Shown: piece by piece, positions 20,181-36,429 of the stretch
Layout of the letters: each line of letters begins with the position of its first letter
Numbering within the stretch: position 1 is the first letter of the stretch
From: a virus
Strand: one strand, 5' to 3'
Virus record (IMG/VR): IMGVR_UViG_3300046690_000339
Coordinates: 1-64,000 of that record
Length of the DNA stretch: 64,000 bases
Notes under the pieces: model-generated
Told to the model about the DNA's origin: nothing
Databases searched by the model: none
What the model saw: the letters and a program-made list of their open reading frames with translations, nothing else
Program-made: the position numbers and the translations under genes

Positions 20181-21038
20181 TTAATTTTTAAAACAGGAGC
20201 ACGTCGGGCAATGCTGTTGCTCGTGAACTCGCGCTCCCGGTGGTTGTTGCTTTACCCATAACTCTAAATTCTCTGGTCTATTATCACTTCGGATTCCGTT
20301 CCTGTGATGTACTTGCTCCTGCGGCAGCAAATAGCGTCCAAGTTGTTTTTCCATGATTAGGCGATGCTCGAAGACGTAATTTTTGCCAATTGTATTTTTC
20401 CTCGATGGATGGTCCGGGCACCACGTTAAAATATATCCACGGCGATCAGGCCTACTGCCGCCCTTCCAACTTTTGCTTTTAGAGCCTTTGTATCGTCCAG
20501 GATTTAATGCGTTTACAGCCTTCAATCCACAACTCCTAGAGCAATGCAATTGCTTGCGCGAATGGAATACATTGGCAAGAAATCTTTTGCTACAGATAGC
20601 GCATTTCTTAATTGATGCGCGTGAACGTTTATGAGGTTTTGTCCCTCCAGCCAAATACCACCATTGCCCTTTGTCGTCTTGCGAGTATCGCGGGTTATCC
20701 GAATTGATGAGCTTTTCAAATTTTCCTTGTTTAGTCGTGCTTGGCTTGCTTGCGTGCATCTCAGTAGCCGCGCAAACATGAGAACAAAATTTAGTCGTCG
20801 GTTTATGCGGAAAAAATTCTCTACCGCAGCCAACGCAATTAACTGTCTCATGTTCACCGTAAACGCTCTTTCGCTTACATTGCTCAGAGCAGAATTGGAT
20901 TTTCCGCCAGTTAATAAACTTCGCGTTACAAAATTCGCAGCGAAATACTTTACCGCGAATTCGACGACCATCGCTGAATGTATGCCACCAGTCACCGTCT
21001 TCATCTTGTGCAAACTCAACTGTTTTCGATCCGCGCAT
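20181..21038 (-). CDS. HNH homing endonuclease with multiple Zn fingers
   Basis: WKGG...GY...EHRLIME..LGR.L...E.VHHRNG..DNRPENLEL; GGAGG SD before ATG 21038. Confidence 0.9.
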   Translation of the reverse strand: MRGSKTVEFAQDEDGDWWHTFSDGRRIRGKVFRCEFCNAKFINWRKIQFCSEQCKRKSVYGEHETVNCVGCGREFFPHKPTTKFCSHVCAATEMHASKPSTTKQGKFEKLINSDNPRYSQDDKGQWWYLAGGTKPHKRSRASIKKCAICSKRFLANVFHSRKQLHCSRSCGLKAVNALNPGRYKGSKSKSWKGGSRPDRRGYILTWCPDHPSRKNTIGKNYVFEHRLIMEKQLGRYLLPQEQVHHRNGIRSDNRPENLELWVKQQPPGARVHEQQHCPTCSCFKN

Positions 21039-21106
21039 GGGAGCACCTCCGGCTAAAAGATGCTCCCACGAATATCTCTTTACTAATGCTAAGTCAAACA
21101 GTTTAC

Positions 21107-21601
21107 CTATGCAAGTGTAAACACGCCCGTTGCAGCCGGTAATATCGTCAGAGTGTTCGGGCTCGTGATGGTAAACGCCGCGGTCGATAGCGTGCAGAAA
21201 CAAAGCACCTTGCCCGCGCCCGCGCCCGACGATGTCCGAATCAGTGCATACTTGATGTTAGTCAAGCTCGCGCCGCTCGCCGTGAAGACAAGCCCGACTG
21301 TGGAGTAAGTAAATTTTAGTTGCTTAGTAGAAGCGCCGGTTGTCCACGTGCCAGTAGCGGGTAGCAGGTTGCGGCCGCCTGCAACGTATCCGCCTGTTGC
21401 GCTGATATCGCCGGGAACGGAGGCGAACGTGGAGATCCCGCCGATCGAGACTTTGAGGATGGCAGCCGATGCCGATGCGCGATGCAGCGACATTTTAAAG
21501 ACGCCAACGCCGAGCGTGATGCCGCCCGAGGTCATCGCGGCGCCGCCGGTGCCGATTATTTTCTTTGCCTTGGTATAAATTTTCCATGTTCCAGCAGCCA
21601 T
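21107..21601 (-). CDS. conserved virion/fibre-module protein
   Basis: W.IY..AK...GGYVAGG...TLTI...GVFTLA motif. Confidence 0.65.
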   Translation of the reverse strand: MAAGTWKIYTKAKKIIGTGGAAMTSGGITLGVGVFKMSLHRASASAAILKVSIGGISTFASVPGDISATGGYVAGGRNLLPATGTWTTGASTKQLKFTYSTVGLVFTASGASLTNIKYALIRTSSGAGAGKVLCFCTLSTAAFTITSPNTLTILPAATGVFTLA

Positions 21602-30573: not shown

Positions 30574-31776
30574 CTATTGCTCAAATTGCATCGCTGCGCC
30601 GTCCTCAAACTCGATCACGTTGCCGTCTTGGAATAGCATCTCGAAGGCGCCGAAATCGGCGGCGCCCGACGGATTGATGATCGCGTGCCCAGGATAGCCG
30701 CGCCCGACTTCGGCGCTGATTTGGTAAATGTTGATATGTAAGTTGGTGCCCTTTAGCCCACCGAAATCGGTTGTCTGATCCGCATCGTTATACGTGAAGG
30801 CTTCGGTCGTCGAGGTCAGCGTGCGAAGCACTGCGCTTTCATCATCCTCCAAGATATCCAGTTCGTAACTTTCCGCCGTCTCGGCAAGAGGCGGATCGTA
30901 AAAGTCCCGACCGTTGCGTCCTTGTAAACGGCTGCGCCGCTTGAAAGTAATCTGGACGTCATCCCCGATATCGGCCAAGCCACGAATGTCCACTGGAGCC
31001 CATGGCTTCAACGATATGCCGGTGTCGGTAAACGTGGTCGCTTGCGCACCGGTTATGTCCATGCCAGACGATACGGCTTTGAATTGCCGCGGCTGGCTAA
31101 TCACGGCCAGCGCATCGTTGATGCGGAAGGTAATCGCCTGGCGTAAAAGAATCGCCCGCTCATTCAGCAAGTGCGTTGCCATCGCCCACTCGGTTCCCTT
31201 ATAGCCGCGCACCATGGGACCGTCCAAGCTCCAGCGCGTCGCCGATAGCTGGCTGACATTCTGAGACAGCACGATTTCATCGCCGATCAAGTAAGCCACT
31301 TCGCCTTTCAGCATCTCTTCCAATGACATGCTTTCCAGCGTGCCGCCGATCAATTCGATCTCAAGCGTGTTGGCATAATCCAGCGTATTGATTTCGCCGG
31401 CCGGCAGCACTTCCTTGGCGAAACCGATCGGCGACGCTTGATCAACCGTTTTCACCTGCTGAAAATCCGCGGTATCATCGTCACTTTGCCAGAGGCTCGC
31501 CGCGCCCCAGGTCGCCAACGCGCCGCGCATGGCGACATAAAAGCCCGCGCCATCATCGGCATCGCGCAGCGTCGGGATATCCATTAAGCGCAGGATCGTC
31601 GAGCCCGGAACATTGACCGTCTGGTTCGGGAAGTTCGCCCGGACCGCTGTGACCGGATCGCCGAGCGCCTGACTGAAATAAATGGCGGGATCTTCCCGGT
31701 AGATTTTTACCGTGATCAATCCCTCGGCGGCCAGCGTCGCCTCGGCAATTCTTGCGGTGATATCTCGGGTTGCCAT
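30574..31776 (-). CDS. GTA-like central tail/host-specificity protein, C-terminal half
   Basis: LMDIPTLRDADD..GFYVA, IGDEI, RGYKGTE, RRSR and PLAE..ESYELDI motifs. Confidence 0.8.
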   Translation of the reverse strand: MATRDITARIAEATLAAEGLITVKIYREDPAIYFSQALGDPVTAVRANFPNQTVNVPGSTILRLMDIPTLRDADDGAGFYVAMRGALATWGAASLWQSDDDTADFQQVKTVDQASPIGFAKEVLPAGEINTLDYANTLEIELIGGTLESMSLEEMLKGEVAYLIGDEIVLSQNVSQLSATRWSLDGPMVRGYKGTEWAMATHLLNERAILLRQAITFRINDALAVISQPRQFKAVSSGMDITGAQATTFTDTGISLKPWAPVDIRGLADIGDDVQITFKRRSRLQGRNGRDFYDPPLAETAESYELDILEDDESAVLRTLTSTTEAFTYNDADQTTDFGGLKGTNLHINIYQISAEVGRGYPGHAIINPSGAADFGAFEMLFQDGNVIEFEDGAAMQFEQ

Positions 31777-31783
31777 TTAAGCC
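31774..31783. repeat. 10-bp direct repeat copy 1 (GGCTTAAATG on the minus strand)
   Basis: catttaagcc, identical to 34123-34132. Confidence 0.75.
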
Positions 31784-34125
31784 ATTGCCCCTAACAGCGG
31801 CGCATCGTCATAACAACGCCGATTTCCCAGCTCACAATACTTCCGCTCCAAGTCCATCCCGATGCCGCGCCGGTTCATCTTGTCAGCGACTAGCGCCGTC
31901 GTCCCTGAACCGCTGAACGGGTCAAGAATGATCGCGCCGGGCTTCGATACCAGCTTGATGAGATACTCGATCAGGTCTTGAGGCTTGACGGTCGGATGAT
32001 TGTTGCCCTCGCCACGGTCGGCCTTGTCGGCCTTGGCGGTATAGTGAAATCTATTTGCTGAGTCCGCTTCCCCACGAACCGTATTGAATAGCGTGATGTT
32101 GAATGTGGCAGGCTCTACAGACCCATTTGATTTCCAGCGGCTTATTGTAATCGTCGTGATGTCGGTCCGCCTTTGGGTTGCCGCAATTTTCACAAGGCAA
32201 CCGTTCGGGAAAGGCTTTTCTTGCTGCAGCTCGGGCGAGACATTTTTTTCTAAACTCAGAATTGCTGTGATAAGCGACTCGCAAAGTTTTCTTAACTCTC
32301 TCGGCGTTGCGCTCATAAAATGGTGCGTTGAATCGCTTAATCCAAGTCGTCCTTGGCTGGCCAAAATTGCTGCATGACTTAGAGCAGAAGCGACGTGATC
32401 GCTTGACAGGAAAGAAAGGTCGTCGGCAGTATTCGCAAGGTCTTGATTCCATGCTATTATTATAGCCTTGGCGTTGCAAAAAAGCGACTCAATTTCATTC
32501 AAAGAAACAGTTTTAAAAAACCGTGACGCGCCGCCGGTGTCGCCATACCAGTCAATCGGGTCTGCCCCTCTACTCTCTGCACCATAAACATTGCCTTGAT
32601 GACCAGACGTTGTTTTGGCGCGACTAACTGTTTTACCGCTGGTCAATTCCCCGCTCTGCTCATCGAGCAGCGCCGCCGCTTCTTCGTCGAGGATTAGGTT
32701 GGCGGGCCAACGACCGACGTTGCTGTGATGATTCGCTTTTGTCGGATCGTAGTTATCGCCAAGGCCGGTTTGAGACGGTCGCCCATTCGCGCCGCATTTA
32801 TAATCGCCATCGAGGTTGATTCGACACCCGTCGATATTCAGCGCCCCGGTACCGTATCGCTGCACGTTTTCGGCTACAGTGCCGATGATCGGCTTGCGGG
32901 CGACGATGATCGGCTGGAACTTAGGCCGTAATCCCAGCCCTATTTCTTCCGGGTGTAAGCGCTGCGCCTCGTCGATAGCATCGCCTAGAACAGAAAGCTC
33001 TTGGATGGCGTTGATGCTCGTGACGACGGCGTTCAAATATCTTGCCGCAGGCAAGGCATTTAACTGTAACCCAGGCGCTTGCAACTCTGCCTTTATGATG
33101 ATGCTTGGAGTGAGCGCCGATAAGCATAACTTCAAGATTTTTAGGTCGATTGTCGGATTTGTTTTCGATTCCCTCTCGCTTGTGGTGGACGTGCTCATTT
33201 CGTCGAAGTGGGCGACCAAGGCGCTGCGCCATGACGACACGATGCTCAAGCTCGTATTTATCGCCGACACGCACAGCGACGTATCCGTCTTTGCGCGTAA
33301 ATCGTCCCAAATATTCTTTGGCTGCTCGACATCCCATCGAGCAAAAGCGAGCGCCGCGTCGTGCTCTGCTTGGCTTAACTTGAAATGTTGTTCCGCAATT
33401 CTCGCAGGTAATATCGACCATAGTTGCGCCTCCAATTTCAATAGGTTCGCAACTATTATACTCCGTTCCGTTGATTCTGGAAATGGTTTTTGTGCTACTA
33501 TGATATTTTCCCATGCGGGTTTAAGCGCCGTGCCCCAGCCTTGCCACTCTTTTGCGGCGTCGGTAGATGGTGCAGTGAGTTTTTCTATTCCATAACCAAA
33601 GATAGCAGTATTGTTTCGATTAGCTTCAGCTGCGGCCATCGTGACGCCGTTTCGTTTTGCCGCCTGAACATCTCCCCTAACTTTTTCTCCAACAATCTCC
33701 CGCTCCGCTCCTGCCGCCTTATCAATCGCCTTACTCACGTCCAACGATTTCGGAAATCCGCTGCCGTAGAGCCACATGATGCAATCACGAATCTCAAAGC
33801 CTGCGTCCTCGATTGCGCAGGTCAGCCGGTGAAACGTCCGCGTGCCGCCGAAGGCGAGCAGGTAAGCGCCGGGCTTGAGCACGCGGAGGGCTTCGAGCCA
33901 GTATTCAACTCCCGGCACAACGGCGTCCCATTTTTGGCCCATGAATCCGCCGCCAGTTGTTACACGCGAGCGACCTGCAGGAGATTTCAGATTCAACGAA
34001 GCCGCGCCGCTTCCGCCTTTTTTGTTTTGAGTAAGTCCGTAAGGCGGATCGGTGATGATGGCGTCCACCGAATTATCCTTCAGCGGTACTTGTCTTGCGT
34101 CGGCGTTGAGAATTTTCCAGCTCAT
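31777..34125 (-). CDS. N6/N4 DNA methyltransferase (beta class) with two in-frame insertions
   Basis: TDPPY, WLYGSGFPKS, GRWPAN, HPTVKP and LDPFSGSGTT. 782 aa; 427 aa without the inserts. Confidence 0.93.
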   Translation of the reverse strand: MSWKILNADARQVPLKDNSVDAIITDPPYGLTQNKKGGSGAASLNLKSPAGRSRVTTGGGFMGQKWDAVVPGVEYWLEALRVLKPGAYLLAFGGTRTFHRLTCAIEDAGFEIRDCIMWLYGSGFPKSLDVSKAIDKAAGAEREIVGEKVRGDVQAAKRNGVTMAAAEANRNNTAIFGYGIEKLTAPSTDAAKEWQGWGTALKPAWENIIVAQKPFPESTERSIIVANLLKLEAQLWSILPARIAEQHFKLSQAEHDAALAFARWDVEQPKNIWDDLRAKTDTSLCVSAINTSLSIVSSWRSALVAHFDEMSTSTTSERESKTNPTIDLKILKLCLSALTPSIIIKAELQAPGLQLNALPAARYLNAVVTSINAIQELSVLGDAIDEAQRLHPEEIGLGLRPKFQPIIVARKPIIGTVAENVQRYGTGALNIDGCRINLDGDYKCGANGRPSQTGLGDNYDPTKANHHSNVGRWPANLILDEEAAALLDEQSGELTSGKTVSRAKTTSGHQGNVYGAESRGADPIDWYGDTGGASRFFKTVSLNEIESLFCNAKAIIIAWNQDLANTADDLSFLSSDHVASALSHAAILASQGRLGLSDSTHHFMSATPRELRKLCESLITAILSLEKNVSPELQQEKPFPNGCLVKIAATQRRTDITTITISRWKSNGSVEPATFNITLFNTVRGEADSANRFHYTAKADKADRGEGNNHPTVKPQDLIEYLIKLVSKPGAIILDPFSGSGTTALVADKMNRRGIGMDLERKYCELGNRRCYDDAPLLGAMA
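32051..32452 (-). CDS. hidden HNH endonuclease 2 (-1 frame inside the methylase)
   Basis: CEYC...FCSKSC, PCENCG...HHDDYNKPLEIKWVCRACH...H; TATAAT 6 nt before the ATG. Confidence 0.85.
   Translation of the reverse strand: MESRPCEYCRRPFFPVKRSRRFCSKSCSNFGQPRTTWIKRFNAPFYERNAERVKKTLRVAYHSNSEFRKKCLARAAARKAFPERLPCENCGNPKADRHHDDYNKPLEIKWVCRACHIQHHAIQYGSWGSGLSK
32921..33421 (-). CDS. hidden HNH endonuclease 1 (-1 frame inside the methylase)
   Basis: CENCG...FCSMGC, DGY, EHRVVM...LGRPL...VHH...DNRPKNL...H..HH; GGAGG SD and TATAAT upstream. Confidence 0.88.
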   Translation of the reverse strand: MVDITCENCGTTFQVKPSRARRGARFCSMGCRAAKEYLGRFTRKDGYVAVRVGDKYELEHRVVMAQRLGRPLRRNEHVHHKREGIENKSDNRPKNLEVMLIGAHSKHHHKGRVASAWVTVKCLACGKIFERRRHEHQRHPRAFCSRRCYRRGAALTPGRNRAGITA

Positions 34126-34132
34126 TTAAGCC
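34123..34132. repeat. 10-bp direct repeat copy 2
   Basis: catttaagcc, identical to 31774-31783. Confidence 0.75.
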
Positions 34133-36429
34133 GCTACCCTCAAGTTCACCGGATCAGCCGCATCCAGCGCCACATATTTTCTAGGCAGCATCAGCACGCG
34201 CGGATCGCGTTCGAGCCAGTGCGTCGCGCTTAAAACCTCGGCAATCTGTTTCGCCTTGGTCGATGTCATCACAATAGCAAGATCTACCGTAACCACGTTT
34301 TTCGATTCGCTGTTTAATCGACCTGACGAAACAACGTGACCGGTTTGATAGCTCGCATCCTGATCTTTAAACCGTACGTGGACAATGACAGGGAGTTCGC
34401 TTTCCTGCGAGCGCGTGATTTCCTGCACCGGCGGAAGAGCGGCGTTCAAGTCGAGCCGCGCCGCACAATCCCCCTGCAGTATCGTCGCCACGGCATTATG
34501 TCCGCGCTTGCGGAAGTAAAGCATGTTGTCGCTTTCCGGCCCGTCATAGTAGGCATAGCGCTGGAGCGGTAGCGTGGCGTCGCGGCCTGTCATCTGCTGA
34601 TCGAGGGTGAAGCCGCGCACGCAATCGGTAAGCTCGGTGACGTTGAATTCGTTTTCTTCCATACCGCAAGCGATGCAGATATCACGCTGGATTTTCCACA
34701 GCGGACAGCACAGACCCTCGGCACCCGGTGCCCAGGCATGAACGGTGAAGTCATAAAATCCCCAAGTGCCAAAATTCCCGGTGTACCAAATTCCATTTCG
34801 GACAAAGAGCGTACCGTCGAGGCCCGAGTTGACATGAGGAGTCGCCGATTGACCAAGAAAAGTTATTTCGCCATCGTTCCAATCCCAAAAGAGCGCCGAG
34901 CCGAAAGTCTGTCCGGTATTGCCAAAAAGTCTTATTCGGGTATCGCTCTCGACGAAAAAATTTCGGACTTTATTCGTGCCAAGATCGTAACTTTGCACAA
35001 GCGACATATCTTCGGGGTCGAACTTATAAAGCATCGCGTGCGCGAGAATATTTCCGAATGCGTCAAAATTGACTCCGCGCAAGGCCCACAAAAAGTCATC
35101 GCCCATATTGATGCTGCTAAGACCGCCATGATCCGTCCAAAAGCTGTCGGCGATCTTACCGATCAATGCACCGCCATCCGCGTTGAATCGCTCGATCAGT
35201 GAAAATTTTCCTCCTGTCGGGACCCGACGCATCAAATAAAGATCGGTTCCCTTCTTCGCAAAGAAATCATAAGGCGGCTGCGGCGGCCCGATTGTTGTGA
35301 TAATTTTTCCTGCACGCACGAGCCAAGCTTTGCCGTCACTCGCGAAGAGCGCAGCCGGTTCGTCGCTGACTCCAGTCGCCATCACGCCGCCCAATTCGCT
35401 TGGGCTCGAATTGTCTGTAAAGACTGCCGGCGGTCGTTCTTCTTCGATGTATGATCCATCCGATAGCAGGCGAAACGCGCGAATGAAATACTCGCCTGCA
35501 TTGGGGCCGCTCGGAATGATGTCGGTATAGACTTGGCTCCCATGACCGACCATCATCAGAATTTCGCCGTTAGGATCGACATAGGACCAACTGCCGAAGC
35601 TACCGCTTGCGCCGCCCTCATCGGTCATCTGCCAGTAGCCTTTTTCCTGATAATTTTCATCGCCGTCCGTGTAGCACTCAAAAGAAAGATTCGGGATAGT
35701 CCCGTACTCCGTCGTCTCGAAATCTTGAAAGACGGCCAAGAATTGATTTCTATACGCCGTGGTATTACCGACGCCCTCGAAGGCTTCGATTAGCGCGGGC
35801 GGCAGCTGTTCTTCGTTGCCATCATAAAAAGTAACCGAGCCGGCGTTTCTGCCTTCGAGATTCTGCCCGGTGCCAATTAGGCTTTGCAGACTGGCATCCA
35901 TGCTGTGATCATAAATTAATTTTGGCCCGGCCCAGATTCGGATCACGCCACGGCAGTTCGACGCGCCATTTATCGCCACGGCAAAGTCGGCAAAGTACGT
36001 AAACGTTTCACCCGACGACCCACCTTTGCCCTTACCGCCGACGGTGTGCTTAAATGTGCGAATGCCACGACCGCCATGGCCGTCCGAGCCGATCCAGATC
36101 AAATTTCCTGCCATGCGATCGACGCCCCAGAATCGTTTGATCGGCGAGCCGAATGCGGCCGATTGAATGTGTGCGTCTTTCAGGCGCGGTCCGGTTACGC
36201 TTTGGTTTGCGCCTTGGAATATTGAAAACAGAGTTGAACTTATTGACCACGCCAGTTGCGCACTGGTGAGAATCGAGCTTACCGACCACGTTGCGGCGGC
36301 GGCAGTAGCGCCGGCCGCAACCTCGGCAGCAACCGCGCTCGCCGCCGCCACTCCGGTCGTCGCAGCTGCGCCGCCAGCGCCAATCTCGGCGGCGGAGCCG
36401 ACTGCCGCCATTATTGTAACAAAACTCAT
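34126..36429 (-). CDS. GTA-like central tail/host-specificity protein, N-terminal part
   Basis: GPRL...FG.PI...G..RMAGNLIW, RIWA, AYR, IPNLSFE, QESELP...YQ and LDAADPV. Confidence 0.85.
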   Translation of the reverse strand: MSFVTIMAAVGSAAEIGAGGAAATTGVAAASAVAAEVAAGATAAAATWSVSSILTSAQLAWSISSTLFSIFQGANQSVTGPRLKDAHIQSAAFGSPIKRFWGVDRMAGNLIWIGSDGHGGRGIRTFKHTVGGKGKGGSSGETFTYFADFAVAINGASNCRGVIRIWAGPKLIYDHSMDASLQSLIGTGQNLEGRNAGSVTFYDGNEEQLPPALIEAFEGVGNTTAYRNQFLAVFQDFETTEYGTIPNLSFECYTDGDENYQEKGYWQMTDEGGASGSFGSWSYVDPNGEILMMVGHGSQVYTDIIPSGPNAGEYFIRAFRLLSDGSYIEEERPPAVFTDNSSPSELGGVMATGVSDEPAALFASDGKAWLVRAGKIITTIGPPQPPYDFFAKKGTDLYLMRRVPTGGKFSLIERFNADGGALIGKIADSFWTDHGGLSSINMGDDFLWALRGVNFDAFGNILAHAMLYKFDPEDMSLVQSYDLGTNKVRNFFVESDTRIRLFGNTGQTFGSALFWDWNDGEITFLGQSATPHVNSGLDGTLFVRNGIWYTGNFGTWGFYDFTVHAWAPGAEGLCCPLWKIQRDICIACGMEENEFNVTELTDCVRGFTLDQQMTGRDATLPLQRYAYYDGPESDNMLYFRKRGHNAVATILQGDCAARLDLNAALPPVQEITRSQESELPVIVHVRFKDQDASYQTGHVVSSGRLNSESKNVVTVDLAIVMTSTKAKQIAEVLSATHWLERDPRVLMLPRKYVALDAADPVNLRVAA

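Follow-up and report, generated by a model that had tools for sequence, protein, structure and literature searches.

The window analyzed here comprises positions 1 to 64,000 of the virus record IMGVR_UViG_3300046690_000339, a 79.9-kb IMG/VR genome rated as complete by CheckV, and it contains a DNA methylase gene that is interrupted by two in-frame insertions (Table 1). The first of these, insertion 1, is a member of the published ShiLan-domain family, a kind of element that is already known. We consider it very likely that insertion 1 is a mobile cassette that encodes an I-HmuI-like HNH endonuclease in a second reading frame, is kept in the methylase by overprinting and spreads by homing. A first-pass annotation of the window, made from the sequence alone, had pointed to the ShiLan domain as a parallel; the relationship proves to be more than analogy, as the element is homologous and occupies the same methylase site. 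Gosselin et al. 2023 (PMC9957025) and Arsenault et al. 2025 (PMC11855218) reported the ShiLan domain as an in-frame insertion with a hidden HNH gene encoding two zinc fingers and with no signs of an intron or intein. In those reports, the start of the insertion resembles the sequence that follows the site, the HNH stop codon falls within the last few bases, and the HNH gene is proposed to begin, by leaderless initiation, at a GTG codon that sits 18 bp inside the inserted block with no ribosome-binding site (RBS).

When the HNH product of insertion 1 was compared with phage genomes by tblastn, 16 phage records matched with 96-97% coverage. Fifteen were mycobacteriophage records representing 11 distinct phages (ShiLan, Bipolar, Pollywog, Filuzino, Mantra, Starcevich and others), with 47.7-50.3% identity and E values down to 4e-32 (for ShiLan itself, 48.3% and 6e-31), and the HNH of Cylindrospermopsis phage Cr-LKS3 was 55.9% identical to that of the window. 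The matches coincide with genes whose annotation reads DNA methylase or methyltransferase, apart from one record that calls the gene hypothetical. A four-way alignment placed the insertion point at the same position in the methylases of the window, ShiLan (gp65) and Cr-LKS3, with Nala gp101 lacking the insertion. This position is the conserved ALKPxxE/PxxVARKP site of methylases of the ShiLan gp65/Dorothy gp75 type, and both flanking motifs were found at the same site in 47 further IMG/VR loci.

An HNH gene hidden in a DNA methylase

The methylase open reading frame (ORF) matches PF01555 in a Pfam search (E = 6.8e-31), its DPPY (residue 26) and FSGSG (residue 737) motifs are intact, and the Foldseek matches of the whole methylase model are beta-class methyltransferases (CcrM, M.BceJIV, MboIIA and others). 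Insertion 1 is flanked by ALKPAWE (33528-33508) on one side and by PIIVARKP (32913-32890) on the other. Two insertion-free relatives, P0001 (379 amino acids, aa) and P0002 (377 aa), are 78% and 77% identical, respectively, to the exteins of the window methylase, and both read GWGTALKPAWE followed directly by PIIVARKPIIGTVAENVQ; alignment with these two and with P0004 and P0008, which are also insertion-free, leaves a precise gap at insertion 1. The comparison with insertion-free homologs that the first-pass annotation had called for yielded a precise empty site in relatives that are 77-78% identical, and the boundaries it had drawn, 32914-33507 within ALKPAWE/PIIVARKP, matched this site exactly.

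Across insertion 1, the methylase frame (frame 0) contains no stop codon and the -1 frame is open through the whole block; the third frame contains 16 stops. The gene in the -1 frame specifies a zinc ribbon (C6, C9, C27 and C31; CxxC...CxxxC), an HNH core and a second zinc ribbon (C122, C125, C144 and C148). The core, of the beta-beta-alpha-metal (His-Me finger) type, follows the pattern HH...DN...NL...H, its residues H79, H80, N91, N95 and H104 are invariant across 38 aligned sequences, and all of the family-invariant cysteine columns are present. The product matches several PHROG HNH families (best E = 7e-16), and the methylase-frame translation of the same block matched no Pfam or PHROG family. 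An AlphaFold2 (AF2) model of the HNH protein has a mean predicted local distance difference test score (pLDDT) of 89, and the best structural match of its core is I-HmuI (PDB 1U3E, VIA re-alignment; Z = 6.7, root-mean-square deviation of 2.9 A over 69 residues, 23% identity), with the next entry at 3.6; a search of PDB sequences with the HNH profile returned no match at E<=0.1. The first-pass annotation had described a complete zinc-finger HNH gene in the -1 frame, preceded by a GGAGG Shine-Dalgarno (SD) sequence, and the reading frames, the family invariants and the PHROG matches all agree with that description. The hidden gene product is, by prediction, an HNH homing-type endonuclease.

Stop avoidance, one-sided selection and the question of splicing

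A pattern scan of IMG/VR for relatives of the HNH gene returned 64 loci. In 57 of them, the overprinted set, the encoded HNH is at least 41% identical to that of the window; the remaining seven HNH genes are more distant and free-standing. In the window, as the first-pass annotation had noted, the methylase frame stays open through the insertion. Relative to the HNH frame it is shifted one base downstream, and across the HNH it has 0 stops in each of the 57 overprinted loci, where it belongs to ORFs of 357-1110 codons. The third frame of these loci contains 2-25 stops, and the seven free-standing relatives have 2-9 stops in the frame equivalent to the host frame. In 53 intact HNH genes, an NTA codon never precedes a codon that begins with A or G, an NTG codon never precedes one that begins with A, and Met never precedes I, M, T, N or K; each of these dicodons and dipeptides would create a stop in the host frame. 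Shuffling synonymous codons within each gene produced a mean of 1.5 host-frame stops, with zero stops in only ~0.2 of the trials per gene. The host frame is thus actively kept free of stops, via a simple dicodon rule.

The first-pass annotation also called the block dual-coding, which is correct in that both frames are open, but the coding is asymmetric. Among close pairs, the overlap shows 0.055, 0.020 and 0.123 differences per site at HNH codon positions 1, 2 and 3, respectively, and this order holds at all levels of divergence; the fastest position is the HNH wobble position, which is the second position of methylase codons. Over the same overlap, the ratio of nonsynonymous to synonymous change (dN/dS, NG86 method) came to 0.18-0.23 for the HNH frame against 0.93-1.17 for that of the methylase; these values are naive for overlapping frames and biased, as the two frames are not independent, but they differ widely. 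Where host-frame peptides are conserved, they shadow motifs of the HNH: at a one-base offset, STSTT (33195-33181) corresponds to EHVHH (33196-33182) and TDTSLCVS to DGYVAVRV of the HNH frame. In the AF2 model of the methylase, mean pLDDT is 61 and most of residues 242-402 score below 50. The dN/dS analysis of both frames proposed in the first pass locates selection in the HNH frame, not in the methylase frame alone. Amino-acid selection acts on the HNH frame, and the methylase frame is neutral-like and merely stop-free, except in the first eight codons of the insertion. This comparative set supplies the frame-specific selection test that was missing from the original ShiLan papers.

These data bear on whether the block could be spliced out. 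It might be an ORF-bearing, degenerate group I-like self-splicing intron, with the openness of the host frame a coincidence; HNH genes often travel in introns (I-HmuI, for example), and the block's 5' end is similar to the 3' exon, which the ShiLan authors regarded as a possible sign of an intron (PMC11855218, section 3.1). However, a search of both strands of 31500-34400 against Rfam gave 0 matches at E<=1 and found no group I or group II ribozyme core, and the 86 + 7 = 93 nucleotides (nt) of the block that lie outside the HNH ORF are too few for such a core. Outside the promoter and SD sequences, moreover, codons 9-28 of the leader drift at one rate at all three positions, and an intron that is spliced would need neither an in-phase open frame in 57/57 loci nor the avoidance of stop dicodons. 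An intron is, in our judgment, highly unlikely.

Protein splicing would require the in-frame peptide to be an unconventional intein. Residence in frame, within a conserved motif and together with a homing endonuclease, does resemble the intein lifestyle, and ShiLan gp65 carries a real intein elsewhere. Yet the first-pass annotation was right that intein termini are lacking: the insertion begins at N207 and ends at Q404, with P405 as the +1 residue, so that the terminal nucleophiles are missing, and all three of these residues vary across the family. A Pfam search of the methylase ORF found no Hint or intein domain, the AF2 model gives low-confidence helices, and the second codon position is the fastest in the host frame. 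A dN/dS near 1 is incompatible with the host-frame peptide being a functional splicing domain. We give this explanation almost no credence.

Probable homing, expression signals and a strand mimic

Elements that are less than 15% divergent at the nucleotide level sit in exons (the methylase segments on either side of the insertion) that are 25-50% divergent. In pairs with such similar elements, the last 25 codons of exon 1 differ by 27%, 24% and 44% at codon positions 1, 2 and 3, and the first 30 codons of exon 2 by 27%, 18% and 54%. In one pair, L027 and L028, the HNH genes are 0.6% divergent, and the divergence of exon 1 climbs from 8% to 25% to 46% over consecutive 8-codon windows outward from the junction, such that the exons are 46% divergent only 17-24 codons away. 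The gradient of divergence away from the junction is present on both sides. Five loci (L014, L035, L036, L043 and L044) have one internal stop in the HNH frame with the methylase frame still open, and probably represent decaying endonucleases late in the homing cycle. In three others (L054, L059 and L063), the same HNH clade is overprinted at another methylase site, between GFPK.. and G(W/F)N..LKP, with no strand mimic; this looks like an ectopic move in which the host frame was kept open. Near-identical elements in divergent exons, the gradient at the junctions and the empty sites support, at the level of the family, the homing proposed in the first pass, and the pattern obtained by comparing sequences is the signature of homing with short co-conversion tracts. 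This picture extends the conclusion of the ShiLan authors to a much wider set of loci.

Alternatively, the HNH could have been domesticated, working with the methylase, for example as a nuclease of the restriction type or one aimed at competitors, with the methylase shielding its target, and being kept for the benefit of the phage. The pairing of an HNH with a methylase follows the logic of a restriction-modification pair, the HNH gene has its own conserved promoter and SD sequence and is under purifying selection, and the genome of the window contains two such cassettes in one methylase gene plus a free-standing HNH gene. Set against this are the patchy distribution of the element with precise empty sites in close relatives, the occurrence of near-identical cassettes in very different methylases with co-conversion-like gradients, and the presence of decayed HNH copies in intact hosts, each of which marks a selfish homing cycle. 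We therefore regard domestication as improbable and favor a homing cassette.

According to the mechanism that we propose, the cassette would be removed by neither RNA nor protein splicing. It is a multiple of three in length, and its use of codons and dipeptides avoids every stop in the host frame. Ribosomes translating the methylase would read through ~198 extra residues, mostly a frame-shifted shadow of the HNH, which would be tolerated as an excursion from the methylase fold. The HNH would be made from signals of its own, a sigma-70-like promoter, GGAGG and an ATG. As comparison among loci suggests, the endonuclease would then cut empty alleles, and repair would copy the cassette together with short flanking tracts; both the cleavage activity of the HNH and its target are predictions from sequence.

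Besides the bias in the dN/dS estimates, several observations weigh against our reading of insertion 1. The Pfam model HNH_3 scores 18.7 bits against the hidden HNH, below its cut-off of 24.8 bits, and the Foldseek match of the HNH to I-HmuI is weak (E = 0.024). Near-identical copies of the window element were found in none of the genome contigs, IMG/VR or the metagenome contigs; the best relative has 63-64% aa identity, so that the evidence for mobility is at the family level and does not extend to recent movement of the window's own copy. The absence of splicing, finally, is something that we infer from the features described above, and splicing is excluded by that inference only.

The leader between the start of the element and the ATG of the HNH gene is 86 nt long and has two parts, codons 1-8 and the evenly drifting codons 9-28. 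A consensus scan ranked TTTCCA-17-TATAAT as the top promoter-like site in the gene, with a 10/12 match to the consensus, and its -10 box ends 33 nt upstream of the HNH ATG. We compared motif positions in 26 distinct leaders and counted occurrences in 41. The -35-like hexamer occupies a fixed position; it is TTTCCA in the window, and several loci have TTGACA or TTGACT instead. An exact TATAAT occurs at one and the same position in 20 of the 41 leaders and in most of the subclade with 86-nt leaders, at a spacing of 16-17 nt from the hexamer, and it is conserved even at third codon positions of the host frame. The other fixed-position motif is TTGGAGG, 7 nt before the start codon; GGAGG occurs within 16 nt of the start in 23/41 leaders, in most of them with the 7-nt spacing, and 30/41 have an SD core of 4 nt or more. 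The candidate promoter and the SD sequence are conserved in the window's subclade, and the HNH gene is probably expressed from this internal promoter.

The window's -1 frame is already open upstream of the junction, from an ATG at 33514, as would be expected if the HNH were made as a fusion to the N-terminal part of the methylase via programmed -1 frameshifting. In most relatives, however, the HNH frame is open for only 155-184 codons, less than the length of the insertion, and is closed before the junction, leading us to reject expression as a frameshift fusion, and the conserved GGAGG at a fixed 7-nt spacing before ATG or GTG also speaks for separate initiation; such a fusion is barely credible. 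In ShiLan itself (L002:2491-2503), GGAGGA precedes an in-frame GTG by 3-4 nt, immediately before the HNH's first CxxC, and the published leaderless, RBS-free initiation may therefore need revisiting. Taken together, the loci suggest that the hidden gene is expressed by a conventional promoter/SD route and not by leaderless initiation.

Each end of the element imitates the motif that it interrupts, and the junctions read ALKPAWE-NIIVAQKP on the left and GLRPKFQ-PIIVARKP on the right; across the family, the HNH stop ends 1-19 nt short of the insertion's end. The eight codons of the 5' mimic show 0.17, 0.15 and 0.55 differences per site at methylase-frame positions 1, 2 and 3, the pattern of purifying selection in the host frame. 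Its A, K and P residues are near-invariant across the family (xxxxAxKP). The aa identity of the mimic to the native strand of its own host is 0.558, versus 0.466 between loci, and none of 2000 permutations reached the observed value; at third positions there is no excess (0.299 versus 0.294), and the mimic diverges along with the element, not with the exon. The lack of a third-position excess and the travel of the mimic with the element rule out a fresh target-site duplication or a recent gene conversion.

The AF2 model of the methylase places A204-Q212 (AWE plus the mimic) in a strand, with pLDDT of 75-85, and the native residues 405-412 in low-confidence coil, and the mimic probably helps the methylase to fold. 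We found no support for a relaxation of the native strand in genes that have acquired the mimic; the native segment is as conserved in occupied as in empty genes (entropy 0.87 versus 0.67, with similar controls). A PDB sequence search with the N-terminal part of the methylase did not reach the interrupted motif. With the native strand unrelaxed and the methylase model poor (mean pLDDT 61), the AF2 suggestion that the mimic takes the place of the native strand stands alone. We therefore suggest only tentatively, as a possibility somewhat short of an even chance, that this self-sufficient cassette of promoter, SD sequence and ORF also carries an 8-residue host-frame patch that repairs the methylase fold at the protein level. 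In the AF2 model it is the patch and not the native segment that lies in the core sheet. If true, the patch would give a homing element a third means of remaining harmless, alongside introns and inteins.

Genome context and comparison with known systems

Table 1. Features of the interrupted methylase gene and its two insertions (window coordinates).
Feature	Position	Strand	Description
Host methylase ORF	31777..34125	minus	782 aa, beta-class N6/N4 DNA methyltransferase; two in-frame insertions
Insertion 1 (ShiLan-type element)	32914..33507	minus	594 nt = 198 methylase-frame codons, N207-Q404
5' strand mimic NIIVAQKP	33484..33507	minus	First 8 element codons, copy of native PIIVARKP; outside the HNH ORF
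Sigma-70-like promoter (candidate)	33455..33483	minus	TTTCCA, 17-nt spacer, TATAAT (33460-33455)
Shine-Dalgarno GGAGG	33429..33433	minus	7-nt spacer to HNH ATG
Hidden HNH gene	32921..33421	minus	-1 frame, 166 aa + TAA (32923-32921), ATG at 33421
3' element end	32914..32934	minus	Host frame reads GLRPKFQ, mimic of ALKPAWE; overlaps HNH C-terminus and stop
Native PIIVARKP	32890..32913	minus	First 8 codons of the downstream methylase segment
Insertion 2	32044-32514	minus	157 codons, same methylase, between GGASRFF and YTAKA
Insertion 2 hidden ORF	32051-32479	minus	EndoVII/PacI-like HNH in -1 frame, unrelated to the insertion-1 HNH

The last residues of insertion 2, SANRFH, mimic the ASRFF that it interrupts. 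Among its relatives in IMG/VR, L071 is the sole overprinted one, at the same site and with 67% identity; the next, L072 (42%), is free-standing and has 3 stops in the host-equivalent frame. The host ORF of L071 carries, besides the insertion-2-type element, an extra CxxC-rich in-frame insertion between GFPKGQDV and GWNVALKP.

The two ends of the methylase gene (~31773-31782 and 34122-34131, minus strand) have an identical 10-mer, GGCTTAAATG, which contains the stop TAA and an ATG, with no intergenic base, and the neighboring ORFs (30574-31776 and 34126-36429) encode tail proteins; it may be that the entire methylase is an inserted cassette. Phages of Caulobacter, Rhodobacter and Sphingobium have tail proteins similar to that of the window, and the host is therefore probably an alphaproteobacterium, as judged from this likeness. 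A free-standing gene at 20181-21203 (minus strand) encodes a 340-aa HNH endonuclease with several CxxC zinc-ribbon repeats, and its core shares 54% identity with residues 52-100 of the hidden HNH.

With I-HmuI of Bacillus phage SPO1, its best structural match, the catalytic core of the insertion-1 HNH shares the HH...N...N...H motif. I-HmuI, however, rides a self-splicing group I intron and has other DNA-binding modules, whereas the window element has no ribozyme and its core is flanked by two zinc ribbons. The Pacc40 gp60 insertion (Arsenault et al. 2025) is similar in having an out-of-frame HNH-like ORF inside an open methylase frame, but the methylase family, the site and the nuclease family are different, and no relationship to either HNH of the window was detected at E<=1e-5.

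The closest copy in a cultured phage is that of Cr-LKS3 (OM373202, gene g59), which occupies the same site; its leader is likewise 86 nt long, and TATAAT and GGAGG are placed in it as in the window. Unlike the carrier of the window element, Cr-LKS3 is a cyanophage, its insertion is 192 codons long, and its methylase has no second insertion. Gene g59 (L001:1501-3351) is annotated only as 'DNA methylase' and holds an unannotated ShiLan-type HNH gene (L001:2022-2510). For annotation, the consequence is that such methylases conceal a nuclease gene that gene callers miss.

With the ShiLan domain itself, insertion 1 shares the zinc-ribbon/HNH/zinc-ribbon layout, the methylase family and insertion point, a stop-free host frame, first ~8-11 residues that mimic those following the site, an HNH stop in the final few bases, the lack of intron or intein signs, and a patchy, mobile distribution. 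The two differ in length (198 codons in the window versus 202 in ShiLan), in the HNH stop (TAA 7 nt before the end of the block versus TAAC at the end) and in expression signals (a sigma-70-type promoter and GGAGG-7-ATG, as predicted for the window, versus the leaderless, RBS-free start proposed for ShiLan). ShiLan carriers are actinophages, and the window element is carried by a 79.9-kb uncultured phage with a tail protein like those of phages of Alphaproteobacteria. To a known kind of element, our analysis adds a stop-avoidance rule, one-sided selection, a conserved promoter and SD sequence, and a selected strand mimic. Together, these comparisons indicate that the ShiLan element is no actinophage peculiarity, as the same methylase motif is occupied by one family of homologous cassettes in mycobacteriophages, a cyanophage, a probably alphaproteobacterial phage and dozens of uncultured phages.

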